Shown here: piece after piece, positions 1 through 56,888 of the stretch
Layout: every line of letters begins with the position of its first letter
Position numbering within the stretch: position 1 is the first letter of the stretch
NCBI GenBank assembly: GCA_008632985.1
Contig: QPGO01000241.1
Span: 1-64,000 of the forward strand
Length of the DNA: 64,000 nucleotides
Direction of reading: 5' to 3'
Source: Psammoneis japonica
Taxonomy: Eukaryota
Program-made: the position numbers and the translations under genes
The notes under the pieces: model-generated
The model's database searches: none
What the model was told of the DNA's origin: nothing
Seen by the model: the letters and a program-made list of their open reading frames with translations, nothing else

Positions 1-1562
1 GGCAGCCCTTAAAGCAACCGTCACTGGCCGCTTGAGTCTCGCGATGTCTTGAACCAATGTTCAACGGTGCCTGATTGGCACAACAGCCCTTAGAGGTCAG
101 AATTGTGCCCTCGCAAGATGGGTCTCCATTGATGTAGATCTTCAATTCATTTTGGCTTTTAGTCACAACAAGATGGGTCCATGTGTGGGCTGGAATCTGT
201 CTTGCGCTGTCGATGCTGAAAATGTTGTCAGACCTGCAACCACCAAAGCAGCCCCCCACCCTTGCAATGCCGGTCTCCTCTTGAATTGCCATCCAAAAAG
301 CACCTGCCTTCTGAAAGATGTGGTGTTTGCGGCATTCAGCCGTGGCATTTTTATTTGCAATGACGGGAGTGTGCCGCACCCATGCCATCATGGAGTGCTC
401 ATCCATGTTCAGATTCTTTGCTTGCTGAACAAGCATGTGGTCATCTTTGCCATCGAAATGGCCTGCAGTCTTGGAAAAGCCAACGCTGTTGGACTGTGGA
501 TCACCATGTCCTCGAGTTGTGTCCCACTCCAATTCTCCCGAGTCTGTGTGCAGCTTGCCCTCCTTGGCTAAAGCATCCTTTGTCCAAACAGCTCGTTGGC
601 ACTTTTTGTTGCAGTTTGGGTCTGTTTGGGAGCCACACCTGTGTCCTCCAACATTTTTTTCAGTGTGTGCCAACAGAGACGTTTGTTGTCAGCGGCACCG
701 TGCTTGGTGTTGCACTGATTTTTTTCCACAAAAGATCCAGCTGGAGAGAATCCCACGCTCCAGGCATTGTTGAAATGCCACTGAATGGCGCCATCCTTTG
801 TTGCATTGTTGTTGTTGTGACTGCCTGTGTCAGTGAAAGCCAAACTTGTGTTTCCAAAGCCAACAAGCATCCAAGAATCAGAGCTTGCATCAGGGCGGCA
901 ACCATGCATCACGCAGTCACCTCCACCGCAGGCAGCCACAATCTGCTCATTGACTTTGTTTGAGCCATCACTGCAAATGCCCGAGTGGCACAGAGTCCAG
1001 CCCTTGCCATCAATCTCAGACTGGCACTTCTCTTCGGCAATGCCAGGGACAAAACCATCAAAGGTGCACTCAAGAATTGGTCCATCACATGGCTTGAAAC
1101 TGGGGAGACGGAATGATTTCATGGAAAGCTTCACACGGTTCTTGCCAATAAAAATGGGGGTGTCATCGGGTGAGTTGATGGTCAAGCATGCGCCCCCTTT
1201 CTTCAAAGCAAAGTCAAAACCATCCACATCACGTTTTCCCATGGCAAGGATGAAATTTGGAGGGTTGAGTTCATCATCTTCTTTTTCAAGGAGCGGGGAT
1301 TTCTTTTTGTGCCTGACGCCACTGGCTCCATCCGCCACCAATGTGCCAGTGATTGTTGCGGCATTTCCAGCCACAACAGCGCGCAGACTCCAGTTGTCGG
1401 AAAAAAGCACTTCCTGACAAGAAAGATGCCTTTGTCCTTTCTCTTGTTCAGATTGCCAACATCACCACATTTTGGTGCTACATCAGCAGAAATGACAAAT
1501 GGGAACTTCATCCAAACCAATGAAAGGACTGTCTGTAGAATGCTGGGGCAAAGGGCTTTCAT
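1..1562 (-). pseudogene. Decayed copy of the secreted LamG-domain gene (runs off the window start)
   Basis: Colinear with 14010-15641 and 24180-25817. Tyr replaced by Cys/His (LCYSG->LCHSG, GDYVMYG->GDCVMHG, QWYF->QWHF). Frameshift near 1400 (ggaaaaaagcac vs ggaaaagcac) and a deletion/stop near 568. Confidence 0.92.
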
Positions 1563-1761
1563 CTTGACTTTCAGTTTCACAACAGAGACGACTGAGCTTT
1601 TTTGTGACAAGAAGGTTCTTTCTTCCTGACCATGCCTCTGCTCTCTAATCTGGTTTGCGGATTCCGAAACATTCATGAATGGTGCAACTTGGCATGATTC
1701 TTTTTGTTCTTTCTTCTGCAGGTTGCAGGATGCAGGGCATCGCACATTCTCCGCTTTGATG

Positions 1762-2989
1762 GGAGTTGCATGAAATGTCAAAATTTTCATTTTTCCTTGC
1801 AAAAATGCACAGAAATGTCAGAGACCTGCCTGCCTGCATGCAAGTGCCACCATCTGCATGATGCTGCAAAAGTTTGTGCACTTGCCACTGAAACACTGCT
1901 TGTGCTTTTTGCCAGGGGACACACCACAGATGCACAACATTCGAGGCACTCAGCTGCAGGACAAATCCTGTGCATTTGAGACTCTGATTTGACAAAATGT
2001 CAAAATTCCATGGAAGGTTTCTCAATTGTCTTTTTTTCCAATCGGTGCTGAGACAAAATGCCCCTGGAAATGCGGGCGTTGCACCACTCGGATTGTGGTT
2101 GTCTTCACCAGAACCCGCCGAAATTTCTCACATTGAGAAGACAACCCACTAGAGTGAGAATGTCAAAATGGTGTTGGAAACGAATGAGAACCCCACCCGA
2201 CACATGGAACCATCAATCCACCTGCGGCAACAAAAACACTGCTGTGTGGCACCAGCACGGTGGCAATCATTTTAGCATGACAACACAAAACATCAAATGC
2301 GCAACACACGACTGCATTGCTCACCATGCAACTTCACCTGCCCATGGCCACAGCAGATTGTCTTGCAAGGACAGTCATTCAGAGGCCAACAAGATTGGAA
2401 TGGATTTGGAGCCACAGGTTCGCGCCATGCTTGAGCACTTTGCAAGACATGGTGCGCGAGTTGTGGGGCCTTCTTCAAGATGAGGGCAACATTTCTCATG
2501 GGTTCCTGCCCACTCACTTGTTGTGTGCCCTTGTTTTCTGAATCTGCATTGTTCTGAAAATATTGTGCTGGGAATCTGTGGTGCAGCACACGAAGACACG
2601 ACAAGAAAATGGTTTTGTGTCGGAACAGAGTCAGCTGCAAATCTGGACTTGTTGCGCACCATCACTCCAATCTCTTTTTGAAAATCAATGTGCTGGCATT
2701 AGCTTCGCCATCATCTCATCTTAGATTGACTGGTAAAACAGGTTTATGGATGATGATGGCATGCACGGTGACGGTGGACGGAACTGATTTTCGTTTCGCA
2801 TCATCAACGAACCATCGCCGCGTTCCGCGTTCGCCGTTCGACCCCATCTGGAGTCGGTGTTCGTTCGCATGCCGGTAGCACTAAATGCAACGTTTTAGGG
2901 GATGAATAAAATGAATTCTCGTCACGAAAAATCGCGAAAAATAGGGAAAAACCAAGAAAAACGAAAATTTCGACATTTCATGCAACTCC
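1762..2989 (+). mobile_element. Internally deleted PIF/Harbinger(ISL2EU)-like DNA transposon
   Basis: ~33-bp TIRs GGAGTTGCATGAAATGTC(A/G)AAATTTTC(A/G)TTTTT starting at 1762 and ending at 2989. ATG duplicated on both sides (1759-1761, 2990-2992). The paralogous sites near 15855 and 26020 are empty. Transposase remnants HLLCAL..FLNL..E..EDTTRKWF (~2510-2615) and CTVTVDGTDF (~2762-2791) resemble DDE_Tnp_4. Confidence 0.8.
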
Positions 2990-3768
2990 ATGCCATCGGC
3001 TTGTGTCTACATTATGCTGCGTGTAGTGGTCGCGCGTCCTCGTCGTGCTCGAGTAGCATTTCGTATTTCGTACTCCTACTCTACTCTCTAGAGCTAGCTA
3101 CTCTACTCTAGAGTACCGGTGCTCTACACTCTACCTACCTCTACATATCATCGGCCCACAAGTTTTAGAAAAGGCGCAAGCAAGTAGTGTCTACTCTAGA
3201 GAGAGTAGAGTAGACTGTCTGTTGTAGATAAAGCGTATAGGTCTACGCGTCAAATACCAATTAGATTCAATGAATATTCTTACTCTCTAGCTACTGGCTA
3301 CCTAAGAGTCAAATTTATTGGTGTCGGCGTGCCACCGTCGTTGCACAGTGCAGCACGACGCGAACTCGGTGAGTCCCGAGTCGTCACAGCTATTTTCATG
3401 GAAAGCGCAAAAGAGCAGACAAAAAGTAGGCCTTCAAACTATTTGATGCATCTGACACATGTTCTTTCCCCAATAAAAGAGTGCTCCAGGATGGAACCTT
3501 CACCTCGGCTACAACAGGAACCGCAGAGATTGACACTACTTGTACAATGGTCAAACGGGATGATTCGTCCGTAAACGCTGTGACGAATCGACTTACTGTG
3601 ACAGCTTGCCACAATGATACCACTCTTGCGTTCAAATCTGAATCTTCTTCAAATCAATCAGCGAAATGAATGTAGCGCAATTGATTTGCTCTGATGCACG
3701 GAAAGTGATCGTGGGATAGGTGAGATATGGTCGTGGGAGGAGAGGTAGTTTCAATACTGCAGTAGCGG

Positions 3769-4767
3769 TTAACAGCCCTCAATGCCTCTCTCCTCAACAA
3801 TCTTATCCTTATTCTCGCCACTTTCTGTCAAGGCAGCACGTTCATTATCTGGTGTTGCAAGACATTCGTTCCAAGCGAGTGATTGTAGTGCAGCACCAAT
3901 GTTTCCCAGCACAAATAAATCCCGATCCGGTTTGTTAAATATCCCACCAGCCGGCACACTGACAAACCCAAATTTTTGATACAGTTTCACAGCGGCAACA
4001 TTGGAATGCCCACCTGCCACGTGAAGTATGGCTCGATTGTTGTTCAGAGAATAAGCTTCATAGAGCGCACACGCAAGAAGCAGTGAGCCGTATCCGTTTC
4101 CCCAAAATGGCTGCTTTACTGCCAAGAGCTCAATCTTGACCCAACAATGGACAAGACCATCAATGACATCCTGTCTATTGAGTGCATTTCCTCTTGTCAA
4201 ACTCGCAATGTTATTGCTCGCCGACGCTTGATACAACCAATGCAAGGATTCCTCTCGCACGGATACCAAAGAAGCCCTGCTGTGTCTTTTACATTTGCCA
4301 TCGTCGTTTTCATTTTCGTCACCATTGTCATTCATTACTAGACCTTTTGAGATGGACGCAGACAGAGCCTCAAAATTGATCCAACTTTTTATTTCATCAT
4401 CTGGCACCTCGCGCCAAAACACCAACCCCACAATTTCATTATTTTCCTCGTTTCGGAGCGTCAAAAGATGCAGCATACCTTCATAGTCGTCCTCCACAAA
4501 GGCTTCAAATAATGTCCTTTCCACGTCAATCGACAGTGCATTTCCTTGACAAAACGACTCTGCAGTATGAAGTATACCCGCGGCTGACGTTGGAGTCTCC
4601 GAAACGCGGGACAAGTGGCAGTGTTGAATGGCTGCTGACACCTTGGCTGGCCAATCGACGACGGTGAATGCTCTGCTGCTGCTTTGTAATACAATGCCGT
4701 CCTCTCGACCACCGGAAGACGACACAGCAGCAGCAGCAGCACTACTGTTGGTTCTGGATGGTGACAT
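3769..4767 (-). CDS. GNAT-family N-acetyltransferase (ORF extends to 4830; likely start MSPSRT at 4767)
   Basis: Intact ORF with normal Tyr content. GNAT motif A ELLAVKQPFWGNGYGSLLL and motif B NVAAVKLYQKFGF. Confidence 0.85.
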   Translation of the reverse strand: MSPSRTNSSAAAAAVSSSGGREDGIVLQSSSRAFTVVDWPAKVSAAIQHCHLSRVSETPTSAAGILHTAESFCQGNALSIDVERTLFEAFVEDDYEGMLHLLTLRNEENNEIVGLVFWREVPDDEIKSWINFEALSASISKGLVMNDNGDENENDDGKCKRHSRASLVSVREESLHWLYQASASNNIASLTRGNALNRQDVIDGLVHCWVKIELLAVKQPFWGNGYGSLLLACALYEAYSLNNNRAILHVAGGHSNVAAVKLYQKFGFVSVPAGGIFNKPDRDLFVLGNIGAALQSLAWNECLATPDNERAALTESGENKDKIVEERGIEGC

Positions 4768-7700
4768 GATTCTGCTCGTACCGTAGAAGACAATGTTTTT
4801 GTGCATTGTGCATTGTGCAATGGATGTCATGATGTGTATGCGACGTTGCGCCTGTGCTGCAACCTGAAACCGACCGTTGCGTGCTTGGCTGCCCAGTCTC
4901 TCATGTTTTCACCAGTGAAGTGGACCATGCAAATGTTGGAAACATCAACACACCAGCTCCTGTCAACAGAGCTTTGCTCAGGAGTGCAGCTTGACAACGC
5001 TGTGGTGCAACGAACACTCAAAATTGCCATCAATCCATTGACTGCTGACCCAACAATCCATGGTGCATTTCAATTGCCAGCCCCACAGAAGACTGCCAGG
5101 CACCAGGCACTGCCAGATTTGTGTGCACTTGTGCTGCCCATTGGAGGCCAGCTCTGCTCAAATGTCAACAGCGTGACTGCCAGGTTTTTTCTGATTGCTG
5201 CACCAAAAACCACAGCTGCTGGGGGACATGTTGGGCCTCCAAGCATGAGACTTTCTTGCAACAAAAAATGATGCACATGGGAATGCACTGGCAGCAGACA
5301 GGGTGCAACATGATGCCTGCCCTGCAACTGTCAGATCTGTGTGCAAGCCATGTGATGTGCATGGACCATGCTTTGGATGACAGCTTGGGTCCTCTTGTCA
5401 ATCCCTTGCACCCTCACACAACAACCACCACCCTGATCCTGCTGAACCAGCGTCAACGTGATGGCATGTGTGCAAGAGCAGCTTTGCTGCTGGCAATGCT
5501 GCATCATGTGTTGCAGCAAGAGCCAAAAAGACCATGACTTGCTGACAATTTTTGACACATCATGGCAATGTCCCAAAACAACCCAACCCCAGACTTTCAT
5601 CCATTGGCCAACACACAGTCAGCAGCTGAGAAATGGGTCTGCCCACAAAAAGTCCCCCCACCTGTTTTTTTTTGCCAAAACATCCTTTTTTTTTCTGGCA
5701 GCAAATCTGATGTTTGTGTGTGGACATTCACAAATGGAATGTTGGGCAATCAATGCCAGCACATTGTTCTTGCACAAAATTGTGATGAACAAAAATGCAA
5801 ATGCTCTGCACACTGATCAGTGTAAAATGTTGAGATCCCATGAGCAACAGCACACCTTTTCACACGAATGTTTGAAATTTCAAATTTTCCATGACTTGTC
5901 AAAATGCGACAACAGTGGCAACAGCCAATGCAATGTGCTCCATCAATGGCCACAAACTCACCACGACACTGACATGTGTCGACAGGATGCAGTTCATGTG
6001 ACATGTGTGTGCCTTGCTGTGCTTTGACATTGATTGATCACAGCAAAAACAGCTGCAATGTTCAATTTTTTGCCCATTGCTTTTCAACCGCACAAGTCAA
6101 CAATGAGCCCGTTGCACTTGCATGTGTCAATTCCACCACACATGAGTTCACAAGATGCAACACACTGTTGATTGTTGTGGCTCTTGAAGGTGATGCCGTT
6201 GAAGAAATGGCAAACGTTTCGTGGTTTCTGGCTGTGGCATTTTAATGGTGATTGCAGTGCTGAAACTGAGCTGTGCTTGTCAAGTTGGCATGGCTGCCAC
6301 TTTGCACATCATGTGCCCACCACTGCTCCCCTTGTTGTGGTGCCTTTGAGCCAATTGGACCTCCATTTCCTTGTTGCACTTTCATCAGTTTCAAAAACAG
6401 CATCCAAGATTTTTGCAGTGCAGTGCTTGTCTCACCCGACTCCAGCGCCATTGCCTCCAGAGATTTGGCCACCTTTCTTGAGTGCCTCCAATCCTTGACC
6501 TTCCAGTGGTCCACCATTCCATGACAGAAAGAGTGGGATTGTCTTCCGGATCACACGCCGGCTGAGTTGGGGTGACGACTGCTGGAGCAAGAGGGTTGCC
6601 ATCCATGTGGGGTGTGGTGGCGTTGGGAGGGGTTGGAGACAATGGGGAAGATGTTGGCATGGTGGACCAAGTGGTTTTACCTGTGGGAGGCAGTGGAGCG
6701 TGAGAAAAATGTGTGAGTTGGTGCCGTTGCATTTGTGGGCTTTTTGGCACAAGACAACAACAGCAACAACAAGGCCAGTTGCAGCAAGGGTGGGAGCAAC
6801 ACTGGCAGGCATGCCAGTTGAATGAAACGGAGAAGGTGCAATGTTTGCACCCCTGATGGTGTCTGTTGGAGGCAGTGGAGCGTGGACAAAAAAGTGTGAG
6901 TTGGCACCATTTGATTGCAGATGTCATTGGCACAAGTCAACAACAGTGTCAACAGCACCTGTTGCACTGAGGGCATGAGCAACAGCATCGGGTGTGCCAG
7001 TCGAAAGAAATGCAGGGACGGCATTGACATTCATGACAGCATCTGTGGGAGGCAGAGGAGCATGCAAACAACAGTGTCAGTTTGCAGCATCTTGTTTTGC
7101 ATGTGTCAGACCATTCAGAACAGAAGCAATGGCATCACCTGTTGCACCAGCATCATTTGCAACAGTGTCGGCAGGAGGAACAGTGTCCTGGCAAGGCGTT
7201 GGGGAAGAAATGCAAGGCATCATCGTGGTCAATCCAATGTGACGAGTGCTTTTTTTGTGGTTGCAAGATGCGAGAAAGGTCAAAAAGTGTCTTTGGCTGC
7301 AGTCAGTTCCAAGTGACTCAAGATTCAGGGGAGAACATGGTTCAGGATTTTTCCTGCTGCTGTTGGCATTTTTGCACAAATGAAAATTTAAGTGATGTGA
7401 TGACATGTAAAAAATTCATTGCATGAACATTGCATCACCATGACATCAAAACCACATTCTCCACTTGCAGAGGGGTGAAAAAAACAAGCCCTTTGGGGGG
7501 GGCACTGACCACGGCAAGACTGTGCAACATGCGGGTCGGCGGGCACGGCCGGGCATTGGGCAGGCCTTTGTGCTGTGTCACCCTGATTGCACTGCATCAT
7601 GCACCACATGCACTGTGAGCACTTTTCATGCTGGTGCTGGCAGTGCTGTGCGGCCGGCTCTGCTCTCTGCTCTGCCTGCTGTGTGCAATGTGCCGGCATC

Positions 7701-8120
7701 AGAACTTGATCAGAATGAGGTCGTGTCAACCATCAAGATGCATGCGTGCTGCTCAACTCAATGCAAAAGGGCAACAATTTGTCATGCACTGCAGACAGTC
7801 ATTTGAACAAAACATTTTTAACACGTCACAAGGGCAGCAGCTGAACTGGGTTGCAACCCCTGTGTGTCACACGGTGCACGTGTGTGGCAAAAGTTGATGC
7901 CAAAATCACCATGGATTGCACACACACAGAAACGAAGATGTGAGCATGCAGCGGTTGAGGATCACAACATGCGCTCACTCACGTGGGGCCCACGCACGAA
8001 CTCCTGTTGCAACCTGGATGCTCCATGACAAACTGTCAGCTCCTGACAACTCTCACAAAAATTGATGTAAACTCGCCATGTGTTGCGCACTTGTGAACTC
8101 CTGTTGGAACCCGGATGTTC

Positions 8121-8230
8121 CACTCACTCACTTGCTCACTCACTTGCTCACTCACTTGCTCACTCACTTGCTCACTCACTTGCTCACTTGCTCACTTGCT
8201 CACTCACTCACTCACTCACTCACTCACTCA
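8121..8230. repeat. Degenerate tetranucleotide microsatellite (CTCA/CTTG mixture)
   Basis: cactcactcacttgctcactcacttgct... with 4-bp period and two alternating variants. Confidence 0.9.
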
Positions 8231-8759
8231 CAAATGAAGCTTTGACATCACTTGCCCTGGTGGTCAGTGAAATGACTCAACAAAAAGTCTTTTGTGCAAG
8301 ACTTGCAAGGACAAGGCATGACAAACAAAGAGGTGCATTTGCAGAGAAGAAGAAAGAGCTTTTGAGAGAGTCAAATTGCCCAGAGTTGAGAAAGCGAGCT
8401 GGACACATGATTTGGCAAATGGGCACTGGCTCCATTGGATTCCATCTGAAATGCTGAAAGATGGAAACAATGGTCAGCAGGTTGCTGCTCTGCTGGGCAA
8501 CTCTTGGGCCACTGCTGGTGTGTGACCCACAGCACCCTGCCCAGAAAGATGAAAAAAGGACAAACCACTGTTGAGCCACCAAGTGAGCAACCTCCTTGTT
8601 GTGACATTGTTTGTGGTTCACATGACACCATTCTTGGCTCTGGTGGTGGTTTTGGGAAGCTTGTGACCAGCACACATGGGGTGTGAGACAGCATGCCCAC
8701 CCTGCTCCATCCTGGTGGCTGGTGTGATGGATTGGTCCTGCATCTGTCTGGCATCAGCA

Positions 8760-11700: not shown

Positions 11701-11840
11701 GTTTTGCTCTCAAGCCACTGAGCTCACAAGAACAACAACAGCAGCACCAATGTCATGACACACATCTTTTTGGGCTCCTGTGATGGCATCTGCACAGACA
11801 CTCATCTGCTGTTTAGACAGCAGTGAGAAGTCATTGTTTT
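8760..11840 (+). mobile_element. Decayed Ty1/copia (CoDi-like) pol with PPT and truncated 3' LTR
   Basis: Integrase (KEFVNTLED..GAPSKLISD..SEPHQQHQN), RT (HVDDL at 10544) and RNase H (KQATVETAT..SEFVAAR, PADILSKHWG) fragments. PPT AACTGGGGAG followed by TGACAGGATTTGAACAGG at 11617, the same LTR family as 51758/55391. Confidence 0.88.
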
Positions 11841-11959
11841 CACAAAGATTGACCAACACATGACAAATGCAATGCAGCTGCAGCAGCCAACAGCCAACTG
11901 GCACCAAAAAAGACAAAACCTCTGAAAGCACCTCTCCTGCTGAGCAAGGATGACAGATG

Positions 11960-13660: not shown

Positions 13661-14009
13661 CTTCCACTTCTAAAGCCGGTCACAGGATGTTCCAGCAATT
13701 CAGAATCGTCAATATGAAAATCACAGACATTGTGGAGCTCGAACACAAAAGCACCGTGATGTTGATCGGGGAAATGGACGAATTCACAGAGTTGAGAGAG
13801 CAAATCTTACATGGCTTACATTGACATTATTTGATGCAATAAGATGCCCGTTCGGCACAACTGTCGCGAATCCCACTGTTCACACAACGCGACTGGAACT
13901 CAACCACCCAGTCGAAAACCACATCTATCCATTCTCTAACTCTTTTACAAAAAATGCTTTCAACGTTGCTTCAACAAAAAATGTGCTCTGTTTCAATCCA
14001 CTTCTGAGA

Positions 14010-18207: not shown

Positions 18208-18224
18208 GAGAGCCAGAGCCAGAG

Positions 18225-18269
<45 letters not shown>
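18208..18269. repeat. (GAGCCA)3 followed by a (GA)n microsatellite
   Basis: Directly visible in the sequence. Confidence 0.9.
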
Positions 18270-43443: not shown

Positions 43444-44111
43444 GTTATTGTTGCACTGCTTGTGGCTTGACAAAAAGTCGAGCTACAAAGTGTCCAAAAA
43501 TTGCTTCAAGAAGTGAGAAGGCGCTCTTCATGGGGACACCATTTCTCAAGAAAAAACTTTATGGCTCTCGCCAAGACTTACATTTTTCGATCCCTTACAA
43601 GGTGTATAACAACACCTGACACTGCCAACCCCTCTTTCTACTTGCTGTTCATACACACCGGTACATGAGAGAAAGATCTCGATCTTTTGTCCGTCCGTCC
43701 TTACAGTACGGTAGGTACCTACCGTATCGTATCGTACTGTACCGCCTCCAGCCTTCCTGGCAACGAACAGGCCGCCACCCACCATCTTTCGCACGATTCA
43801 AAGATGGCGCCGTTTTGTCCGTCCTACTTGATCCTACGTACCTTGAGATTGACAAATTTTCCATCGATTCAAACAAAATCTCCGACCCCACGACTCAAGC
43901 CTGATCATTCATGTATATTTGTTTACTAAGATGATAATAAACATAACTGATTCTTAAACCATGTAAATGACATTCTCACGACCGCATAGTTGCGCGCCAA
44001 AATCAAGCGTAAATAAACTTCAGTTGCACCAGAGTTGCCCAGAAAATGCGTTCTTTTCGCTTTTCGCAGCTTTCATAAGAATACCGCAAAGCCAAAAAAG
44101 CAAGATCGACC

Positions 44112-46256: not shown

Positions 46257-48722
46257 AACGTGGCCAATATATGTGTGATTGTTCCCACCAACGTATTTGT
46301 TAAGTTGATGGGAGCTGTAGATCAAACTGATTGTCGGCTGGTGCAGCGAGCAAGAGTTAGACTGTTCCCGTGAAAGACATTAAAATGCTGTAAATTATTT
46401 AGGACCATTCAAATAACGATCATCATGCACAACATGTTTTAAAAAGTGCGACTGAGACAAGCAGAAACGTCTAGAGCTAACAGTCGCCCTCCTTCCGCTC
46501 CATCAACATTTCTTTTTCGACTGCACCGTACTACCTTCCATCAGCATTAGCACTCATGCTCATAATGACAGCTACAAGCCGTTTTTTCCTAAGGGGTGGT
46601 GCTAGAGAGAGGGTCTCTCCACTGCTCTGGCTACAAATTTTTAATGTTTGTTTTTGCATTTGTTCCACCATTGAACAAACAATAAACATCTTTTGAACAA
46701 AGAATGCATAAAAATAAACGAAGAAACGAGTGTACATAATGCATTCACGACATCTGCCACCAGTCACACTCCTGATGACGTCTGATCTGCGCCGCCACTC
46801 TTCACAGCAGCTCCTGACAAGGCTGCAAAACAAACAAACAAACAATTTTAAACACCCAGCTCGTGTGGTTCGACGAGGTGAAATGACTCCTCACTTCCAA
46901 CCACTGTGTCATTCCTCACTGGCCTCGTGCAAACCAAAGAGGGGAGATGACCCATCACTGGTTGCAGTGAATCAACTGACTTGCTCCCCCCACACTGGCT
47001 GCCATCAGTTGAATGCAATGAGCTGGTGCAAGAGTGCTGCTGCTGCCTCTCATTCTTCCCAAGAGTCCAGCAGCAAGCCAAACAGAGCTGTCGTTGTTCA
47101 ATGGAGGACACCATCTGCAACTGCTTCAGCTGTCTTGCAGGATTGTCATGGCACAACAATGTGTTGAATCAGCCAGTGGATCTTGGCACCAGAATCAAGA
47201 AGGCAGTGTGCCCACCAAGAGCAAATGTTGGAAACCAAGGCAGTGTGCCACCAAATGCTGATGTCACTGGAGCGGGTGTCTGAAATGAGGGGGTGTTTCC
47301 ATTGCAAGGAAATGCAGCAAATGCTGGTGCAGCTGGTGCATCCTGTCAATGTGGGAAATGCACCTGGTGCAAGAGCACATGCGCAGCCACCAGCACAACA
47401 GAAACAACCAGCAGTGTTGCCACCCACACAAGGGCAGCAGCTTTCTGCTGCAGAACCCAGTGCAAAAAAGCCCCAGCAGGTGTGCTCGCACTGCCACCAG
47501 CAGCTTGCAATTGCCAAGACTGTTGCGCCATTGCAGCAAAGAAACTGCATCATGGGAGCTGCACACTGGCATCATGCAAGATTTTGCCACTCCCTGCAAA
47601 GGAAGTGTTGCAGCACAACCCAGTGACATTGAGACATTGCGCAGGAGCCATGTCAAGTCAATGCCTGCCTGTGGCAATTGTGCAACACTGTTGGACCCAG
47701 AACATGCAGGATGCAGTGGTGACTCAGGTGCTGGTGCACACCAAACCAAATTCCACCCCATGACCATGGTGGGTGCAGCTCAGCTGTGGGACAACAGCGT
47801 GTGCAATGTCAGTGAAGACATCATGCCACAAGCCATGTGATGAAACACAAGTGATCTGGTGATGTCTGCCAGATTTTGTGTCTTGACACAAAGAACAAGA
47901 AGGAATCTCAACAACAAAAATGTGGGCCTGACACGCAGCTGTGCTTTGAAGCCCCTTTGTGGCAACTTTTGTTTCAACCAGCACCAATGACTGCACCACT
48001 CAGTTCAGTTGATGACCTTGATTGAATGTGATCCATGGCACAAAAGACAAAATGAATTGCAGTGGCTCATGTGCAGAGTGCGACATGTCATTTGTCATGC
48101 ATTGCAAAAAATTGTTGTGCTTCTTGTGTTGTGTTGTCACAAAAAAATGCAAGCCGCAAGACATCTGAGTGAAGGCAAGGAGTGCCATGACAGAACCATG
48201 TGAGACCAAAATTAATGTGATGGATTTAATGGCAATGTTCATGTTCCCCTTTTCCTGTGACAAGGGAGGCACCATGGCCTGCGTTTGCAAAAATCTGCTG
48301 CATGGCTTTGCTGTCAATGCGGGAGGCGCCAACAACCACAAGTGCTTCGTGATGCTGAGAGAACATCCTCATGATCACATGAGTCACCGTGTTCTACAAA
48401 GGTTTTTCATTGTCGCCACACGGTGATTGCAGTTGAGTGTCATGGTGGCATGGGATGAGAAATGCAGAATTCCATTCGCCCTTTTCAAGTTTCGAGCTCT
48501 GACAAAGATCGAGATTGTCGGCCCAGGTGGACAGCTAAAAAAATCGATGCGGGTGCGCCAACCGATCCTGCGAAACTGGCAAAACTGAAAACCCTCTCCT
48601 CTCCAAGGCTCCTCTCTCCGTAGTGCTGTACACTGTGCCGCAGAGACACCGACAACCGACACGCGATCACCATGTCTTACAGCACTGAACATCTGCGCAC
48701 ATTCGACAACTAAATCTCAACC

Positions 48723-50033
48723 ATGGAAGTGAACGGTGGTGATGATTCTAATCAGGTGAAATGTGACACGGGAGTGTTCAGTGAATTTGTTGATGCAAGC
48801 AGGCGGGAGAACAGAAAGCGCGTGAGAGAGGAGGAGACGGCAGCGGCCAGGCCTGTTGATCAGCCAATTGGCAGCAGTGACGATTTCCGTGTGACCCTTG
48901 CCCCGACTCCCGGGCAGAAGGCATTTGTTGAGGAGTGCAAGGCGCTCAAAATATCTCCACCCAGGACAGAGCATGACGATCAGATCATGGAAATGGATTT
49001 GGTTTGGGAGCGAATCGAGCGCGATGGTTTCTCTTCGGAACTCGAAAACCCAGATAAAAAGAAACTCCTCTGCTTCCTTCATGGGCGGGAACATTTTGTA
49101 CAAGACCCCAAGAGACGTGTCAAGGACATCAAACAGATTCTTGGTTCAGAAGGAGAGCCTTTCAAGCGTCTCATGAGAATTGTTGACAAAGATGGTGACA
49201 AACTGAACATCGGCAAGGACGTGGAACAGTGGGAGAACTTGGGGAAAGACTGCGGTTCGAAAAATGGAATTAATGTCTTTAAAAAGTTCAAAATCAAGCT
49301 TGCTCTTTGGATCCAGCACAGTGGCAACTGCTTCTTACATGCTCCGGCCATTGCTCAGTGCCACTTGGTGCAGATTGGTTCGAAAGGGTGGAAAGGAATG
49401 ATGAATCTCGGCAAGCACATTGGGTGCAATTTCGATTCAGAAGAGCTTTCAAAATGTCTCATCACTGACAAGGGAGGAGATTCTTTTGAGTTGCTTAAAC
49501 GAATCACCGTGTCGCCCAAACTTTCTGTTCATTCCCCAGAAGCTGTTTATGATGAATGTGTTGTGGCACCCTTTCCAAGTGAGAAGAACCTCACAAGCCT
49601 TCCTGACATTTGGTCTCTCATGGAGGAATGGGGGCCAGGTTTGGTGTCAAGGTTCAAAGTCGACAAGGCTTTCATGGATGGGGGATCTCCAGAGCAAGAA
49701 ACGGACATTCCTTTCTTCGATGGAAAAGTCAAAAACGACTCTCCGATCTCTTGCGACGTCTCTAATCGGTGCCACCATGCCATGGTTGTGGTGGGGATCC
49801 GGCATGACGGCAAAAAATGGCGATTTCTTCTCCAAAACTGGTGGAAAGTGAATCCGTTTGTGGAAGTTTCTGCTGAGCACTTGGCTGGCAGCGGAGCAGA
49901 AATCGCCTTTTGTGCTGAGTTACAGACTGAGATCCAAGAAAGTGTCCCGATTACCATGGAAAGATCTGCGGAGACTTCGATCAATGGAAATGACGTTCAC
50001 ACGGAAGTGTGCAAGAGAGACAATTGTCAATGA
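48723..50033 (+). pseudogene. Papain-like (C1-type) cysteine peptidase, open frame but TpA-eroded
   Basis: Catalytic-like WIQHSGNCFLHA, HHAMVVVG and FLLQNWW. Only one Tyr in 436 aa and CpG largely retained. May still be translated. Confidence 0.65.
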
Positions 50034-50439
50034 CAAGAGAACTGTTCTTCCTGTTTGGAGTGAAAAAGAATGCCGTTAGTCGGTGTTGCGGAGGGGTGGT
50101 CCAAGCGTAAAATATAGAGAAGTTGCGTTTGAAAGTCAGTTTGTGTAATTCTCCAAAAATGTTGCATGTTAGCCTGGGAAGATGAGACTTCAAGCCCTCT
50201 GTTCTAAGCTACATTCTCTGACCCTATCCCCAGACAACTTTTGGGTCTTTTGTGATGCCTGCCAAACATCTGTTGAGATCCACCAACTCTCTCTCTCTCT
50301 CTGAGACATGCTTTTGAAATGATGCTTTTGTCATCTGGTGTTGCCCTTTCATGTGCTGTCTCACAGTTTCATTTTTTTAGCTCACAAGTGACATCCCGGT
50401 GTGGGTGTCCCTCATCTTCATGTGAATGAAGGCTTTTGA

Positions 50440-51072
50440 AACCAGTTGGTCATCGGGCTGTGCCACTGGTGACAAAGAGGAGTTGGCACCAGCACAGAGC
50501 AGACAATGGAAGAGACATTGCCCAAGCCCAAGTGGAAGGCTGCACAAAGGCCGATGGCATGGGCAGGCTGCAATGCATTCACCGGCTGACAAAGAAGACC
50601 ACATGGACAAAACCTGAAAATTTTGATGAGCAATGAAAGGCCCACACAAGAAATGGAAGAAAACAACAAGCAATGACCAGCATGATGATCAACGCACCAC
50701 CACAACAGCCACTGCCACAGGAGAGCTCCCATTGATGAAGCAGAGGGTCCAAAGCAAGAGTCAAAAATTGCAGAGCCCACAACACAGTCTGTTTCAGAAA
50801 AGAGGAAAGAAGAAGAAACCCCAGCTGCACCAGCAAAGTTGGGTGCAAAAGTGCTGCCACAAGCCAGACAAGATTGACCAAGAGTTCCGACAGGAACACC
50901 AGTGGCACACACAAGAAACACCACAGCAAGGTCACAACAGTGCCAGGATTGATGATTGTGTGCACCACACTTGTGGTGGTGATTCCTTTGTTGGTGCTCA
51001 AAGGCAGCATTGATGAGGACAAGAAGAGCTCATCTGCAGGCTCCTTTGGCTCTGAGGCTGTTTTGCCAACTG
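50440..51072 (+). pseudogene. Decayed 5' fragment of the WW-TM-CA gene (third copy)
   Basis: Aligns with 44170-44790 and 57420-58060. GRLYYFH->GRLQCIH, then KKTTWTKPE, VVVIPLLVLKG..KKSSSAGSF. Confidence 0.88.
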
Positions 51073-51567
51073 CATCGCTGAGCTTTTCTCAGCACACAAT
51101 GGTCAATGGGCTTGTTTTTGCTCTTCTGTTGGTTGTGATTTTTCCAAATGCACTTGTTCACAAACTTGGTGGATTGACTTTTTCCCACACATGACAAGCT
51201 TTGTGCATCCCAAGATTTGCACCAGAGTCTTTGGTGATGGACCAAGAGGCACTTCATTGAGTGGAAGATTGCACCTCCAATCCTCCATGCAGCTCTTCTC
51301 AATTCCACAACTTCTCAGCACTTCTTGCACATCTTTTCTTTGCTGCCACAGCAAAGCTGAGCCCAGAAACATGCCCCACAAGATTGGGGCAACTGGCGTG
51401 CTTTCTTTGACATTGCTTTTCCATGGACAACACATTATAGATTGTGAGGCTTTTCCTTTGCATCCTTGGCTTAAGTTTTTTATCAGAGTGCTCCAATCTA
51501 GTTTGATTTTTGTGACTCCTTCTTCCCGACCAACTCATGTCTGAAAAACACCAGAGTGTGACATCAT

Positions 51568-51607
51568 CAACAACAACAACGACAACAACAACAACAACAA
51601 CAACAAC
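51568..51607. repeat. (CAA)n microsatellite
   Basis: Directly visible in the sequence. Confidence 0.9.
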
Positions 51608-51757
51608 GTCTTCTTTTCAGAAAAGAAGCATGCCTGAGCTCCACACCTTTGCTTTCAGCTCTGCTGTGCTGTTTTGTGTGGATGAGCCAAAAGGAATGAC
51701 AAGCAAAGCTGCACAGGAAAATGAAAATGACACAATTTGCTGTGCATGTGTGTCGCG

Positions 51758-54700
51758 TGACAGGATTTGAACAGGATTCAGGTGCGCGTGAAATGTCGCG
51801 CGCTGTTTAGTTTACCGCGCCACAGTTTTGTGTGCTTTGGTTCCGCGCGTTCGCACGCGATGTAGTTTGCTTTCGAGCCACAAGGCTCACAAGAACAATG
51901 ACAGTAGCCCGATCACACCGACTTGCACATCTTTCGGCTCCTGTGACGGTCTCTGAGCGGAGACTCATCTGCCATTTAGACAGCAGCAAGGAGTCATTGT
52001 TTGAATTCTTGCCATTTGCCTTCAACTTCTGTCAGATCAACAGTCTTGCTCATTGTCAACCCATTGAGCAACCGCCATCGTCGTCGTTGATTTGCCGACG
52101 ACGCCATTTCAATTCTGCGTGGATCTCCGCACACATTCTATGTACATCGGCAAGTCTGTGCGCATTCAATGCCAGGCATCGGCAGGAAGTTAACGTCACC
52201 GTCAAGTCTCCTTGCCGCTGGATTGATTGCACTGCCTTTCATTGCCGAAGACATGCATTCAACGGTCACATCCAAGTCTGTCCTTGATCCTCATCCCTTG
52301 ATGTACCCATTCAATGGTTAACGGTCAAGAACCCTGCACATTCAAGGATCTTCGTCGCTGAAGACACACATGTGCACATGTCTTCACGGCCAAGAACTTG
52401 TGCCCACTCTTTGGACTGCGGCTTTGCCACCACTCTACAAGCACACCGAGTCCATTGTACCTGATCTGCCCCGGACTGCTGGTGCCCCACAGTTCCACCA
52501 GGTCCACGAGGACGACTGTGAGAGCAAGTGGCCGTGATTGCAGCCTACGTTGGGGCGAGGGTGTTTTTTCCTGCGTTTGTTCGTTCGTCCACAGCGCCTG
52601 ATGCCTGCGTCAACTGGCCAGCCTGATCGGGAAATCCAACTGACACAAAATAAGAACAGTTCGGGGGTCTTGTCCACCTCTAGTCAGCTTGCCTGCAGGG
52701 GTTTGCAACCCGCCACTCCGCTCGCAAGCAACCCAAAGCGCCGCCAGCTGCGGGTTCGGACGTGCCGGCACAACTCTACGGACCGGATGGGAAGTTTAGC
52801 ACTTGACAACGAATGGGACAGCACAGCCCGGCAACTTCTGATTTTAAGACAGTCCAAGATTTCAAGTCAAGTCTAGCTCAAGTCAAGTCTTTTTCAAGCC
52901 AAGTTCCAAGTCAAAACTCCGAGTCAAGATCGTGCTCTAGAGACGCGTTCCAGATGCAGGTGGGAATCCGTGTGACATTGGGCCCGTAGACTTCTACGTG
53001 CGAGCTCCGTGGCAAAATTGTGCGGTGATTAAAATGTCAATGATTGCCAACAGAAAATGAGGCAATTTTGCGAACGCACAAACTCGCACATGATTGAAGC
53101 ACATCATTTTTTACTCAGCCAGTTGCATTCTTCAGACATTGAAGAATGCAACTGGTGCATCATTGTTTCCATAAATTTGTCATGTAAAATGTCTGGGGCT
53201 TCGCAAAACAGCGAGTCTGGACAATTTTTTTTAAATGTCACACGCAGAAATCTACGTGCGAAACATGCGACGGATGACAAAAATTGTTGTTGTCACACGT
53301 CAGCACTGCGAGCTCCCACCCAGGGCTGGAATGCATCTAGATTGGTTCCTGTCTTTTGTTTCCACTGCACCGTCCTCCGTCATGGTTCTCACGTGACAGC
53401 AACAAACCGAAAGCTTCAAACACATTCCAGGCACTGCACTCAATCAAGACGATGACAGCCCTCTTCGTTCTGCCCTGTCCATCAATGGGATTGAATCGTG
53501 TGAGGAATTGTTCATGTTCTTGCCCACCCAAATTGATGCCCTCACTTGCAGAGACGGCACCAATGCAGTGCCTTTGCCGCGGACCCACAGAAACCTCCTG
53601 GCAGCTTTGATCAGCTTCTACTTTGTCAAAGTTTGCAACAGTGATGATGTGACCAATGAACCCCAGTTGCTCACACCCGACGAATTTTGCAACTACCGCC
53701 TTGGTCCGGACCACTTGACCTCTCCAGCCACTGGCGCAGCACCCTCCGCACCTGTGCCGAGTCCCTTGCCATCCAAACCAGGTGAACCCAGTGCCATTTT
53801 GACACCAGCCTTGCACTGTGCCACCACTCAGGTGTCCCCCAGAAGTGGTGTCAGTCGCGCCCTTCATGTCTTGACCAACCCGCCTGCAAGCAACCTCGGC
53901 CCAGTGCAGGATTGCAGCCCTTGCACAGGCCCGCACTTCGAGACCAGTTGGGACACTCTACCCATGGCTTCCAAAGCTGCAGTCTTTGCACCCCGCAAAC
54001 CACGTGCTGCCAACCTCCACGTGTCGACCGCTGTCACCCTTCACAGTCTTCGTTTGGGAAGTGATGGAGATGACAACTTGCTTCTCGCATCTCCTGATGG
54101 GGAGCCTCCTTTTCCCATCATTGAATCTGTTCACAACAGTTCAACCGGTTCATCAGATGGGGAGTTCAGGACATCCAAACAGCTTCGTTGTCTTTGGATG
54201 CCCCAAGTGTCGTACCTCGAGACCAGGTCTCCTGGTTGGATCCCCCAAGTCTCGCACCTCGAGACTGGGCCTCCTGATTGGATGCCTCAAGTCTCGCACA
54301 TCGAGACTGGGCCTCCTGATTGGATGCCCCAAGTCTCGTGCCTTGAGACCAGGCCTCCCAACTGGACTCTCCACATCTCGTGGTTCCCGTCATTGAATCT
54401 GTTCACAACAGTTCAACCGGTTCATCAGATGGGGAGTTCAGGACATCCAAGCAGCTTCATTGTCTTTGGATGCCCCAAGTGTCGTACCTCGAGACCAGGT
54501 CTCCTGGTTGGATCCCCCAAGTCTCGTGCCTCGAGACTGGGCCTCCTGATTGGATGCCTCAAGTCTCGTACATCGAGACTGGGCCTCCTGATCGGATGCC
54601 CCAAGTCTCATGCCTTGAGACCAGGCCTCCCAACTGGAATCTCCACGTCTCGTGCCTCGAGACCGGGCCTCCCAATTGGATCCTCCACATCTCACACCTC

Positions 54701-55667
54701 AAGACTCGGCCTCCGGATTGGATCCCTCAAGTCTTGCACCACGAGACTCGGCCTCCTGATTGGATCTCCCAAGTCTCACACCTCAAGACTTGGCCTCCTG
54801 ATTGGATCCCTGAAGACTCGTGTCACAAGACTGGCAAGTCCTTTTGGATCCCAGAAGTCTTGCAGCATGGGACTGGTTGCCCCAATCAGACATCTGCAGC
54901 CTTGCACCACAAGATGTCTTGCTCCAATCCAATCCCCAAAGGCTTGCACCTTGAGACTCGTTTCTCCAATTGGATCAGTCTCTCAGGAGATGCAGCTGAG
55001 CTTGCAATCGGATTGGTGGAACACAAGACCACTGCTTGTGCCTTTGAACTCATGCTTGCTCTGTTCCCCGAGTCATGCAAACACCATGCCGCCTGCAATG
55101 TTGCCCCGCCGTTCAACATTGTCAACCAGACCAAGCTTTGCTCCTTCCATTGCAAGTGCGGATGTGGAATCCCACAAGATCCCAAGTGTGCCTTGAGCTT
55201 TGAAAAGCACAACGGCATCTGCAATTGGGGAGACGCAGCTCATCTCAAGATGACCCACTTGGAGAATGCAACGTTGCTCTTGGATCTTGATCCTTTCTTG
55301 TCTCCTCATGTTTTGGTGCTTTGACTCCAAAGTTCTTTAGTCAATCCAAAGTTGAATCTGTTTCTGTGGCTCCTCAAGCAAACTGGGGAGTGACAGGATT
55401 TGAACAGGATTTGGGTGCGCGTGAAATGTTGCGCGCTGTTTAGTTTGCCGCGCCACAGTTTTGTGTGCTTTAGCTCCACGCGTTCGCGCACGATGCAGTT
55501 TGCTTTTGAGCCACAAGGCTCACAAGAACAACAACAGCAGCCCAATTGTACTGACTTACACGTCTTTCGGCTCCTGTGACGGTCTCTGAGCGGAGACTCA
55601 TCTGCTGTTTAGACAGCAGCAAGGAGTCATTGTTTGAATTCTTGCCATTTGCCTTCAACTTCTGTCA
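51758..55667 (+). mobile_element. Internally deleted (non-autonomous) copia LTR element
   Basis: 277-bp LTRs at 51758-52034 and 55391-55667 with TGACAG...CTGTCA ends. TCGCG target-site duplication, PPT AACTGGGGAG. Gag-like remnant near 53510-53900 and pre-RT remnant IPQDPKCALSFEKHNG..WGDA near 55170. RT/RNase H absent. Confidence 0.92.
54118..54990 (+). repeat. 42-bp tandem array (PQVSYLETGPPDW[M/I]-like 14-aa units) plus a ~270-bp duplication
   Basis: ccccaagtctcgcacctcgagactgggcctcctgattggatg repeated, decaying toward the 3' end. The block at 54118-54388 is repeated from ~54389. Confidence 0.88.
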
Positions 55668-56888
55668 TCGCGCATGAAAAGGTCATGTGCAAACAAGCTG
55701 CGCTAACTGGGGCCTTGCTTGCTGTGACAACTTGCTGCTGAGTCTGTGGGCATTGGCACCAATGCCACCCAGTGTTGTTCTTTAGCAGGTGAAGAGTCTC
55801 ACAAGAGCAGTGCCAACACTGCACACAGCGCAAAACAGCGCAGAAGAAGCCTTTGCAGCACCCACACAAAAGTTCACAAAATGATGCACTCCAACCTGTG
55901 CAACATCTGTGATGCAATGTTGGCATTTGATGCTGAGGACATGAAACAAGCAGCGCCAGGTGCCCTGTGCAAAAATGTCTTGATCTTGTTCAAAAGCTGT
56001 TGGCCACACGTTTTTAAAACCATTTTCTCCCAAGCGGCAACAAATGGCAACACCTTGCATTTTATTTCAAGGCTTTGTGTGCTTAAATCATGTCACCATC
56101 AGCTAAAGCTGTGCAGCACATGTGTTGCTTTAAATTTTGATTTCTCATGGAGCTGTCCAACCAGGTGCAAAACAACCAGTGCTTGCTCGGCTTGGCTGGG
56201 ACAGCTGGCAGACACATCAGAGTGTGTGCTGGGGGGCCTTGTTGCCAGTGTGCTAGACAGCACAGTCACATCAGGATGGGACAAACCCAGCAGAACAGCA
56301 ATGGCTGTAGAGAATGCCTGCTTTGACAAAAGCAGTTGAACAGAGAGAGCTCCACATGTTTTGGTCTGCCTGCCACCAGTTCATGCAACATTTGCAGGAA
56401 TGAACAGTCAGGCCAGTGACACCAGAACCAAGCTGATCAAATGGTTGTTCTCACATGTGAGCCATGTCAGCAATTTGCTACACATGTGCACTGTTGTTAA
56501 GATGAAAAACTGACAAAAGTCCTCCCATCAGCACCTGGCAAATTTTCTTTTGTCCACCAGTTGTCTACGAAATTTTTCGGACCCACGACTAAAGCCAGAT
56601 CATTAAATTGCTACGTTGTCAAGAAGATTATAACTATCACAACGGATTCCCAGTATGACACTTTCAATAGAATGCACAACCGAAGCAAGATCATTTCAAT
56701 TTTTTAGATATAAATAGTGATTTCAGTGACAACGGATAATCAAACAGAGCATACGACAATATGAAAACCGTATAAGTATTTACGCCAAATCAAACTTTTG
56801 AAACACATCAGTCGGTTGTCGCGTCGTGCGTCGTGCTCTTTCTTTTCACCACTCTCAAACACCGCCTAGTAGCCATGCAAGATCAACC

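Follow-up and report, generated by a model that had tools for sequence, protein, structure and literature searches.

Introduction

Hypermutation directed at the dinucleotide TpA (5'-TA-3') has been described in the chlorarachniophyte rhizarian Bigelowiella natans, where 231 of the 302 nuclear mutations found in 15 Illumina-sequenced mutation-accumulation lines fell in integrated giant-virus and virophage regions, and 230 of these 231 were A>G or T>C changes, all 230 on TpA (Mettrop et al., bioRxiv 10.64898/2026.01.13.699255). As reported in the same preprint, the regional rate was ~6e-7 per site per generation versus 3.5e-10 elsewhere, with 11 of the 15 lines affected; windows poor in TpA and rich in CpA and TpG were clustered, TpA-poor coding sequences were enriched for reverse transcriptase and DDE domains, and an ADAT2-like adenine deaminase was proposed by the authors (bioRxiv 10.64898/2026.01.13.699255). 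We have analysed a stretch of 64,000 nucleotides of Psammoneis japonica DNA (contig QPGO01000241.1, positions 1 to 64,000; the whole stretch is referred to below as the window), in which a Ty3/gypsy-type retrotransposon, degraded repeats and dead copies of host genes are strongly depleted of TpA. We report that, with this footprint, TpA hypermutation of the B. natans type is documented from a second lineage.

In repeat-induced point mutation (RIP) of fungi, C>T/G>A changes that occur mostly at CpA create TpA, and both copies of a duplication are mutated. The C->T character of RIP is documented (PMC7296669). Among diatoms, a mutation-accumulation study of Phaeodactylum identified CG, CC and TG as mutagenic contexts and, in the portion of its text available to us, contains nothing on TpA (PMC6604790); the same paper cites a figure of ~6% of the Phaeodactylum genome for cytosine methylation. 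In full-text literature searches the signature described here appeared only in the B. natans preprint, and no report for diatoms was found. An earlier note on this DNA, made from its sequence alone, had named the pattern a candidate "reverse RIP" and stated, before any literature search, that it knew of no described system with such a signature; the preprint describes one (bioRxiv 10.64898/2026.01.13.699255).

Results

TpA depletion in sharply bounded domains

We calculated observed/expected ratios (o/e), with the expectation taken from base composition, and obtained for the whole window values of 0.28 for TpA, 0.57 for CpG, 1.56 for TpG and 1.53 for CpA; positions 1-56560 hold 829 TpA versus 3681 expected. 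When TpA positions were segmented into two states, the window was divided into seven low segments, which together occupy 42,164 bp (two thirds of the window) and contain 243 TpA, and seven normal segments of 21,836 bp with 936 TpA. The TpA o/e was 0.09 in the low state and 0.62 in the normal state; the corresponding values were 0.39 and 0.93 for CpG and 1.73 and 1.20 for TpG/CpA, at GC contents of 0.496 and 0.472, respectively, and the longest TpA-free gaps extended up to 1609 bp. Domain edges were sharp, as can be seen at 4837/4838 (ten bases from the start codon of a GNAT acetyltransferase gene), 16014/16015 and 40693/40694. The depleted DNA consists of transposons, repeats and dead gene copies, while adjacent genes and their flanks are spared. 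Because the normal segments comprise intact genes together with the non-coding flanks and spacers of those genes, the difference between the two states is not one of coding versus non-coding DNA.

We observed that CpG depletion occupies the same domains as TpA depletion, a parallel decay that is absent from the earlier note. In several 1-kb bins a TpA o/e of 0.12-0.30 was accompanied by a CpG o/e of 0.7-0.9, and the reverse was seen in no bin; TpA loss precedes CpG loss in these domains. The skew between TG and CA along the window showed no domain-scale strand asymmetry.

Direction of change in dead gene copies

The window contains three copies of a Laminin_G_3 gene, of which copy A (1-1757) lies in a low domain and copies B (open reading frame [ORF] 14010-15749) and C (ORF 24180-25835) are intact. 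In a three-paralog alignment, the 114 changes private to lineage A included 28 TpA>TpG, 14 TpA>CpA and 24 CpG>TpG/CpA changes; those private to lineage B included one TpA>TpG and two TpA>CpA (3 of 67), and those private to lineage C one of each (2 of 90). Ancestral dinucleotides for copy A were taken from the sites at which B and C agree. By this measure, 6 of 45 ancestral TpA were kept in copy A, 26 had become TG and 13 CA, so that 87% had changed and all 39 changed sites read TG or CA. Other ancestral dinucleotides had changed less often, CpG at 22 of 52 sites (42%; 20 of the 52 now read TG or CA), TpG at 5 of 101 and CpA at 5 of 127. TpA loss in copy A was thus ~3.7 times faster than CpG decay and ~45 times faster than turnover of TpG/CpA dinucleotides, and substitutions of other kinds lag behind the TpA process by two orders of magnitude. 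Changes in copy A were spread evenly over the three codon positions (28/41/36), whereas those in copy C were concentrated at the third (19/19/52). Because of this even spread, and because copy A carries frame-breaking gaps, we regard it as a pseudogene. The two intact paralogs, compared over 13665-15869 and 23804-26038, are 87.9% identical over 2263 bp and both are unmutated.

Two further sets of duplicates gave the same picture. When the intact GNAT gene (3365-4706) was aligned with its dead copy (16037-17375), TA in the intact copy faced TG or CA in the dead one at 32 sites and the reverse occurred at 3, with corresponding counts of 38 and 8 for CG. The dead copy of a WW-domain gene (50446-51071) was compared with two intact genes: against W1, TA faced TG/CA 20 times with no reverse case and CG did so 33 times with one, and against W2 the counts were 23 to 0 and 32 to 0. 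Between W1 and W2, both intact, the counts were nearly balanced (6 and 7 for TA, 5 and 8 for CG). In all, four independent comparisons, drawn from the three dead copies and from the long terminal repeat (LTR) pair and pol Tyr codons described below, point to A:T>G:C change at TpA as the direction of the process.

Several statements of the earlier note can be read against these results. Its hand counts were exact: 10 TpA in 8701-13660, where 315 are expected (CpG 32 versus 303 expected, TpG plus CpA 1149 versus 622), and 17 in 41101-41400, where 24 are expected. The five hexamer changes from which it had deduced the direction all recur in the alignment of the sequence from position 1 with that from 14084 (columns 0, 11, 22, 42 and 181), the A:T>G:C direction that it proposed agrees with the three dead copies, the LTR pair and the pol Tyr codons alike, and the TpA-specific excess that it anticipated is present in the polarised spectrum (39/45 TpA versus 5/101 TpG and 5/127 CpA). 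It was also right to set aside RIP and deamination of 5-methylcytosine (5mC) as causes, since the changes observed remove TpA. Its "intact glycosyltransferase" (ORF 40735-42144), however, has no Pfam family and no PDB sequence match, although it does sit in a TpA-normal island.

The Laminin_G_3 and GNAT genes form a tandem unit that has been duplicated as 1-1757/3365-4706 and 14084-15869/16037-17375. Decay of the two units is complementary: the first unit combines a dead lectin-like Laminin_G_3 gene with an intact GNAT gene, the second an intact lectin-like gene with a dead GNAT copy, and a hypermutation boundary falls between the two genes in each unit. This arrangement suggests that silencing of the redundant copy comes first.

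The LTR retrotransposon: LTR pair and pol codons

The Ty3/gypsy-type element, hypermutated and on the plus strand, occupies 31400..36695, with LTRs at 31400-31831 and 36264-36695 that are 94% identical to each other. Domain matches place its protease (33075-33653), reverse transcriptase (33572-34282), RNase H (34369-35004) and integrase (34968-36221) in shifted frames. The two LTRs of one insertion are identical at integration. In this element they differ at 26 bases, which represent 19 events: 10 in which TA faces TG or CA, 7 TG~CA doubles (TG in one LTR and CA in the other), 2 in which CG faces TG or CA, and none of any other kind. A TG~CA double is one ancestral TpA hit independently with both possible outcomes, and 17 of the 19 events are accordingly of TpA type. 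With singles counted once and doubles twice, TpA was hit 24 times or more at no fewer than 21 sites, each followed in two lineages (at least 24/42, or 57%), as compared with 0 hits on ~800 other site-lineages, and the TpA rate exceeds background by at least ~200-fold. Six TpA are kept in the 5' LTR and 12 in the 3' LTR. Because the LTRs differ only at TA, CG, TG and CA, the process acts on integrated DNA. In addition, CpG o/e values in the element were 0.56-1.0 where those for TpA were 0.11-0.15; TpA has been lost from this young target while CpG is still near normal, and 5mC deamination cannot remove TpA.

We aligned pieces of the element to a hidden Markov model of 39 full-length pol homologs and scored those columns, 472 in number, in which 80% or more of these homologs agree. 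The element keeps 382 of the 472 conserved residues, including Arg at 34/34 columns, Trp at 18/18, Gly at 32/32, His at 10/10 and Cys at 7/7. At the 25 conserved Tyr columns, by contrast with these, it has only 3 Tyr, the remainder being 11 Cys (TGY), 10 His (CAY) and one Thr, such that 21 of 25 read Cys or His. As a control, 120 homologous pol proteins were found to carry 0-2 Cys or His at 28 Tyr columns. Other frequent changes were Leu>Pro as CCA (7), Ile>Val after T (7) and Thr>Ala, mostly after T (7), with Ile>Met or Thr and Val>Ala in addition, and these match what would be predicted from TpA loss within and across codons. Among the 90 changed conserved residues, 50 can be reached by a single TpA>TpG/CpA step and 6 more only by a CpG step.

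Site independence, strand and flanking bases

TG~CA doubles made up 23 of 108 events between the mutated repeats at 12853 and 21063 and 46 of 90 between two mutated loci from metagenomes (L036 and L050, see below), as compared with 4 of 196 between the intact genes B and C and 3 of 226 between W1 and W2. Along dead copies, the order of TG and CA outcomes was random (18 runs versus 18.4 expected, and 19 versus 17.0), and in the pol region Tyr codons only 3 bp apart were hit on opposite strands, at 34028/34031 and at 34456/34459. Each TpA is hit independently, on either strand and without strand coordination. The random order of outcomes and the opposite-strand neighbours therefore argue against a processive attack on a single strand.

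A tentative estimate of flank preference was made from 80 polarised sites, read on the strand of the adenine. The targets hit were T-A-C 37/48, TAT 19/48, TAA 14/40 and TAG 5/24. Among 161 TpA that survive in low bins, TTAA was over-represented 4.2-fold and CTAA/TTAG 2.8-fold; ATAC/GTAT stood at 0.05 times and ATAT, which accounts for 6.6% of TpA in normal domains, was not found at all. A preference for 5'-TAY (that is, RTA-3') is common to both estimates and we offer it tentatively.

Reads from a public run and related loci from metagenomes

A public sequencing run (X1) holds 0.88 of the sampled words of 8001-18000. Contigs derived from its reads, at a k-mer depth of 54-68, showed 0 differences and 0 gaps relative to the window over four stretches of 677-2947 bases, namely 8241-9563 and 11721-12397 in low domains, 15763-18202 across the dead GNAT copy, and 2960-5906 across a domain edge. 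Because contigs at a depth of ~60 are identical to the window, noisy long-read errors are excluded. Two other public runs (X2 and X3) contain almost none of this sequence. Among the differences between X1 and the window that were listed (40 of 287), 12 lie in low domains, none of them at TpA, and six are CG versus TG/CA, at positions 756, 7546, 12668, 13023, 19416 and 19894; these six may represent allelic CpG decay that is still segregating. Summed contig depth in the same run reached ~2200-2400 over 9339-11339 and ~18,900 over 11340-12006, where single-copy DNA has ~60, and the fully TpA-erased segment 9339-12006 belongs to families with copy numbers in the tens to hundreds at an identity of at least 90%.

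We also identified 54 metagenome loci with relatives of the pol gene. Four of them (L036, L050, L044 and L045) had TpA o/e values of 0.02-0.29 and TpG/CpA o/e values of 1.49-2.16, at a GC content of 0.49-0.52 that resembles that of the window; at their conserved Tyr columns 13 of 17 residues read Cys or His. The remaining 50 loci had TpA o/e values of 0.57-1.10 and kept Tyr. The four depleted loci are 68-86% identical to the window at the nucleotide level, over short patches only, and two of them, L036 and L050, which belong to separate records, are ~80% identical to each other and show 46 TG~CA doubles in 680 bp. The depleted metagenome loci indicate, therefore, that the process occurs in wild material.

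False reading frames in depleted DNA

TAA and TAG occur at 1.9 and 1.4 per kb in depleted DNA versus 7.8 and 7.9 per kb in normal DNA. Since TpA loss removes TAA and TAG, long false ORFs arise in dead DNA. The low domains contain open frames of 350-600 codons, for example at 53397-55193, 28758-30206, 48714-50030 and 20619-21686; none of the long frames had a Pfam match, and those at 28758-30206 and 48714-50030 had no PDB sequence match either. ORF length alone is thus a poor ground for gene annotation in such domains. Pfam scans of 113 pieces of depleted ORFs gave 0 families for nearly all pieces; TpA loss degrades transposon proteins beyond Pfam recognition.

Other features of the window

The genes of the window are eukaryotic, with long uninterrupted ORFs, and include a kinesin-14, WW-domain proteins, a GNAT acetyltransferase and ConA-like/Laminin_G_3 proteins. 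The closest named relatives of the kinesin motor are from Nitzschia inconspicua (62% identity), Bacillariaceae sp. (61%), Seminavis robusta (60%) and Cylindrotheca fusiformis (59%), all of them raphid pennate diatoms; no near-identical protein was among the matches listed. The placement of the host as a diatom-like stramenopile alga comes from this single kinesin, and the host is not B. natans. No tRNA was found in a scan of the window, and no giant-virus genes were recognised among the targets within it.

From left to right, the first depleted domain (1..2699) includes the dead Laminin_G_3 copy and holds 13 TpA (o/e 0.07; CpG 0.42, TpG/CpA 1.70). It is followed by a TpA-normal island on the minus strand (2700..4837; TpA o/e 0.64, CpG 1.01) with the intact GNAT acetyltransferase (ORF 3769-4830; Acetyltransf_1, E 2.4e-09), and then by a depleted domain of degraded multi-copy repeats (4838..13807) with 19 TpA in 8970 bp (o/e 0.03; CpG 0.19, TpG/CpA 1.89). 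The latter contains a (CACT)n-like tract at 8121-8231 and, at 12589-12930, a faint remnant of a copia-type reverse transcriptase (RVT_2, E 0.0043, below the family cutoff). The minus-strand islands of Laminin_G_3 paralogs B (13808..16014; TpA o/e 0.54; E 3.4e-22) and C (23599..26263; TpA o/e 0.47; E 3e-23) enclose a third depleted domain (16015..23598; TpA o/e 0.08, CpG 0.26), in which the dead GNAT copy is located. On the margin of the paralog C island, 23648-23934 holds a 143-bp unit that is present twice, at 99% identity. The DNA upstream of the LTR element (26264..31399), in which the ORF at 28758-30206 lies, is depleted to a TpA o/e of about 0.03-0.19 and was assigned to no family.

To the right of the element, the domain at 36655..40693 (TpA o/e 0.07, CpG 0.30) contains another faint copia-type remnant at 36657-37193 (RVT_2, E 0.0014, again below the family cutoff). 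The plus-strand island at 40694..46737 (TpA o/e 0.61, CpG 1.01) carries ORF 40735-42144 and a WW-domain gene at 44112-45014 (E 3.4e-10). Beyond it, the depleted domain at 46738..56478 (TpA o/e 0.14, CpG 0.49) includes the dead WW-gene copy and tandem arrays with units of 42, 84 and 272 bp (54112-54860), the arrays lying within the false ORF at 53397-55193. The window ends in a plus-strand island (56479..64000; TpA o/e 0.68, CpG 0.91) with WW-domain genes and the kinesin-14 gene (61076-63442; Kinesin, E 6.7e-99).

Discussion

Probable hypermutation of TpA in silent domains

We consider it probable, at about 85%, that the window records a heritable, DNA-level TpA>TpG/CpA hypermutation targeted to silent domains; this figure covers the phenomenon and its targeting, and excludes the enzyme. 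In this process, 5'-TA-3' is converted to TG or CA on chromosomal DNA after integration, on either strand and site by site. Its targets are LTR retrotransposons, degraded repeats and pseudogenised gene duplicates in the probably silent chromatin of a diatom-like stramenopile alga, and active genes, with non-coding flanks a few hundred bp away, escape. Coding capacity is destroyed through conversion of Tyr codons (TAY) to Cys or His and through alteration of CTA, ATA and GTA codons. As the trigger, location within a silent domain is a better fit than repetition, because paralogs B and C are 88% identical and yet untouched; silencing of a redundant copy would come first, and mutation after. Thus, of the "reverse RIP" proposed in the earlier note, the A:T>G:C direction and the confinement to transposons, repeats and dead copies are borne out, and the repeat-induced trigger is not. 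The slower CpG>TpG/CpA decay in the same domains is presumably due to 5mC deamination.

For the chemical step we propose, as a tentative choice that falls somewhat short of even odds, that a deaminase directed to chromatin, with a TadA/ADAT-like U-A specificity, would convert adenine at 5'-TA into hypoxanthine. A deaminase is favoured because the T before the A matches the U33-A34 recognition of tRNA adenosine deaminases, an argument made in the B. natans preprint (bioRxiv 10.64898/2026.01.13.699255).

Several of our observations weigh against this interpretation. Polarity in the Laminin_G_3 triplet was assigned from parsimony, ORF integrity and codon-position spread, without an outgroup; a search for one gave no orthologs and only 7 distant matches, with 24-44% coverage. 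We infer that the domains are silent, heterochromatic or methylated only from pseudogene state, transposon content and CpG decay. In Pfam scans of the proteins of the 64-kb window, no deaminase or dioxygenase was encoded. Of the 90 changed conserved pol residues, 34 fit neither a TpA nor a CpG step. The WW set hints at strand clustering (4 runs versus 7.6 expected, P 0.03, n=15), and the estimates of flank preference from hit counts and from survivors agree only in part. Run X1 may be the assembly's own sample, its platform being off record, and is not an independent individual. Finally, a patch at 32941..33925 within the otherwise hypermutated LTR element has near-normal composition (47 TpA, o/e 0.71; CpG 1.00), and all three surviving conserved Tyr codons (33369, 33710 and 33776) lie within it; part of the 3' LTR (36380-36654) is also near normal in TpA (o/e 0.61). 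Possibly, these stretches reflect gene conversion, local protection or an assembly mosaic. The earlier note had asserted TpA loss from every transposon and dead copy; the depletion holds for the low domains (o/e 0.09) and fails for this 0.9-kb patch of one retrotransposon.

Other explanations

One alternative accepts the phenomenon and holds that a symmetric modified base at the palindrome TpA, such as 5-hydroxymethyl- or 5-formyluracil made by TET/JBP enzymes, or a modified A, marks silent chromatin, with TpA lost as a by-product when that base mispairs or decays, in the way that 5mC leads to the erosion of CpG. Like CpG, TpA is a palindrome, and the two have been eroded in the same domains; the site-independent, strand-uncoordinated hits resemble CpG decay rather than processive attack on a single strand; moreover, oxidised thymine mispairs with G, and 5-hydroxymethyluracil (5hmU) in dinoflagellates prefers TpA. 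In dinoflagellates, which belong to the group of stramenopiles, alveolates and rhizarians (SAR), transposable elements are silenced by 5hmU, which a TET/JBP enzyme produces and which overlaps with 5mC on repeats (PMC11572971). Yet the bursts in 11 of 15 B. natans lines, read by their authors as regulated activity, look less like steady decay (bioRxiv 10.64898/2026.01.13.699255), and the loss of 87% of TpA against 42% of CpG in the same copy would need a very mutagenic mark, so that we regard this account as possible but on the whole unlikely. Less probable still is a TpA-specific lesion, or error of replication, that occurs throughout the genome and escapes repair outside open or transcribed chromatin, so that silent DNA would accumulate the changes passively without being targeted. 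The spared regions are exactly the gene islands with their flanks, and the complementary Laminin_G_3/GNAT decay fits the order of silencing first and mutation after, as such a scheme would have it; but non-transcribed spacers between active genes keep normal TpA, and the rate excess is extreme, the LTR pair showing 0 substitutions outside pyrimidine-purine dinucleotides when at least 24 of 42 TpA site-lineages had been hit. We know of no spontaneous lesion that gives a clean TpA>TpG/CpA change. In B. natans, one hypermutated virophage region showed no difference in expression relative to other insertions, and only some lines were mutated (bioRxiv 10.64898/2026.01.13.699255).

The remaining explanations deny either the DNA-level event or the change itself. 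Modified bases in repeats might have been miscalled as G or C, the real DNA retaining TpA, and the platforms of both the assembly and X1 are off record. We consider such an artefact very improbable: the X1 contigs at a depth of 54-68 reproduce stretches of 0.7-2.9 kb with 0 differences, miscalls at a palindromic site read on the two strands would be expected to yield numerous TA and CG calls, of which there are hardly any, the same sites show ordinary pseudogene decay (indels and an even codon-position spread), four metagenome contigs of other assemblies carry the signature, and the B. natans events come from Illumina reads (bioRxiv 10.64898/2026.01.13.699255). A-to-I editing of retroelement transcripts by an ADAR- or ADAT-like enzyme, fixed by reverse transcription before integration, would account for a retrotransposon being the clearest target and for the U before the edited A, which is the preference of RNA-editing deaminases (bioRxiv 10.64898/2026.01.13.699255). 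For most of the signal it is already refuted, and we give it hardly any weight, because 17 TpA-type events separate the LTRs of one insertion, the two strands are hit to an equal extent with adjacent sites on opposite strands, and segmental duplicates of cellular genes are affected together with their upstream flanks. Native composition or selection, whereby the elements arrived TpA-poor or TpA was counter-selected (as stop codons, TATA-like sequences or nuclease sites), draws on the mild under-representation of TpA even in genes (o/e 0.62); it is refuted by the polarised comparisons and its likelihood is negligible, since dead host-gene copies have lost TpA relative to intact paralogs, the destruction of conserved pol Tyr codons is degeneration and not adaptation, and 120 homologous pol proteins keep Tyr. 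A VSP-like biased T:G repair was dropped on reasoning only, as TpG/CpG would be required as its context, together with an abundant supply of mismatches.

Implications

Mutation is usually biased toward GC>AT, and an A:T>G:C hypermutation at a single dinucleotide runs counter to this. The process is not peculiar to one species or to giant-virus insertions, and it is tied to domains that are undergoing CpG decay. With a second lineage at hand, phylogenetic profiling of deaminase-fold and TET/JBP genes across species with and without the footprint makes a search for the enzyme or the modification practical. If a chromatin-guided natural DNA adenine deaminase is at work, it would represent nature's equivalent of the adenine base editors made in the laboratory, employed in genome defence. 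A broader and rather doubtful possibility is that TpA serves as a second heritable mark in SAR-group protists, carried by a modified T or A and symmetric in heterochromatin beside CpG methylation; the diatom-like alga, Bigelowiella and the 5hmU of dinoflagellates would then share one ancient silencing pathway, with hypermutation as its mutational shadow.

Comparison with known systems

Deamination of 5mC at CpG accounts for the slower CpG>TpG/CpA component described here and cannot remove TpA. With fungal RIP the process shares a restriction to transitions in a dinucleotide context, the inactivation of transposons and duplicated genes, and a compositional footprint; it differs in that A>G and T>C changes are dominant and TpA is removed, in that paralogs B and C, at 87.9% identity, remain untouched (3/67 and 2/90 TpA changes), and in that strand-coordinated runs were not detected, apart from a deviation in the WW set of 15 events (P 0.03). 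A>G change with a 5' T or U also characterises TadA and ADAT2-3, which act at tRNA U33-A34, ADAR, which prefers a 5' U, and engineered adenine base editors. Unlike the chromosomal process seen in the window, however, TadA, ADAT and ADAR are RNA enzymes and the base editors are laboratory constructs; to our knowledge, no natural chromatin-directed deaminase of adenine in double-stranded DNA has been established. The mild T-A-C preference recalls the UACG loop recognised by bacterial TadA, although the comparison is a weak one. The 5hmU of dinoflagellates resembles our case in the same kind of repeat targeting, in its overlap with 5mC, in its occurrence in a SAR lineage and as a possible route to T>C; a TpA mutational footprint is not reported in the portion of that paper available, where neither "TpA" nor "T-to-C" occurs (PMC11572971).

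The closest counterpart is B. natans. There the mutations were recorded de novo, and the rate is a measured one, whereas here the signature is known from standing sequence. The hosts differ, a rhizarian chlorarachniophyte there and a diatom-like stramenopile here, and so do the targets: in place of giant-virus insertions, those in the window are the gypsy-type LTR element, remnants of copia-like elements, repeats that could not be classified and the dead copies of three host genes. Depletion in the window is near saturation, with o/e values of 0.03-0.14, as against a Rho of 0.45 for the region of nucleocytoplasmic large DNA virus origin in B. natans, and it is accompanied by CpG decay in the same domains; CpG, diatoms and stramenopiles are not mentioned in the accessible part of that preprint (bioRxiv 10.64898/2026.01.13.699255). 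In the essentials, however, the two systems coincide: the changes are exclusively TpA>TpG and TpA>CpA, they are regional and occur at orders of magnitude above background, and they leave the same footprint of clustered TpA depletion with a gain of CpA and TpG.

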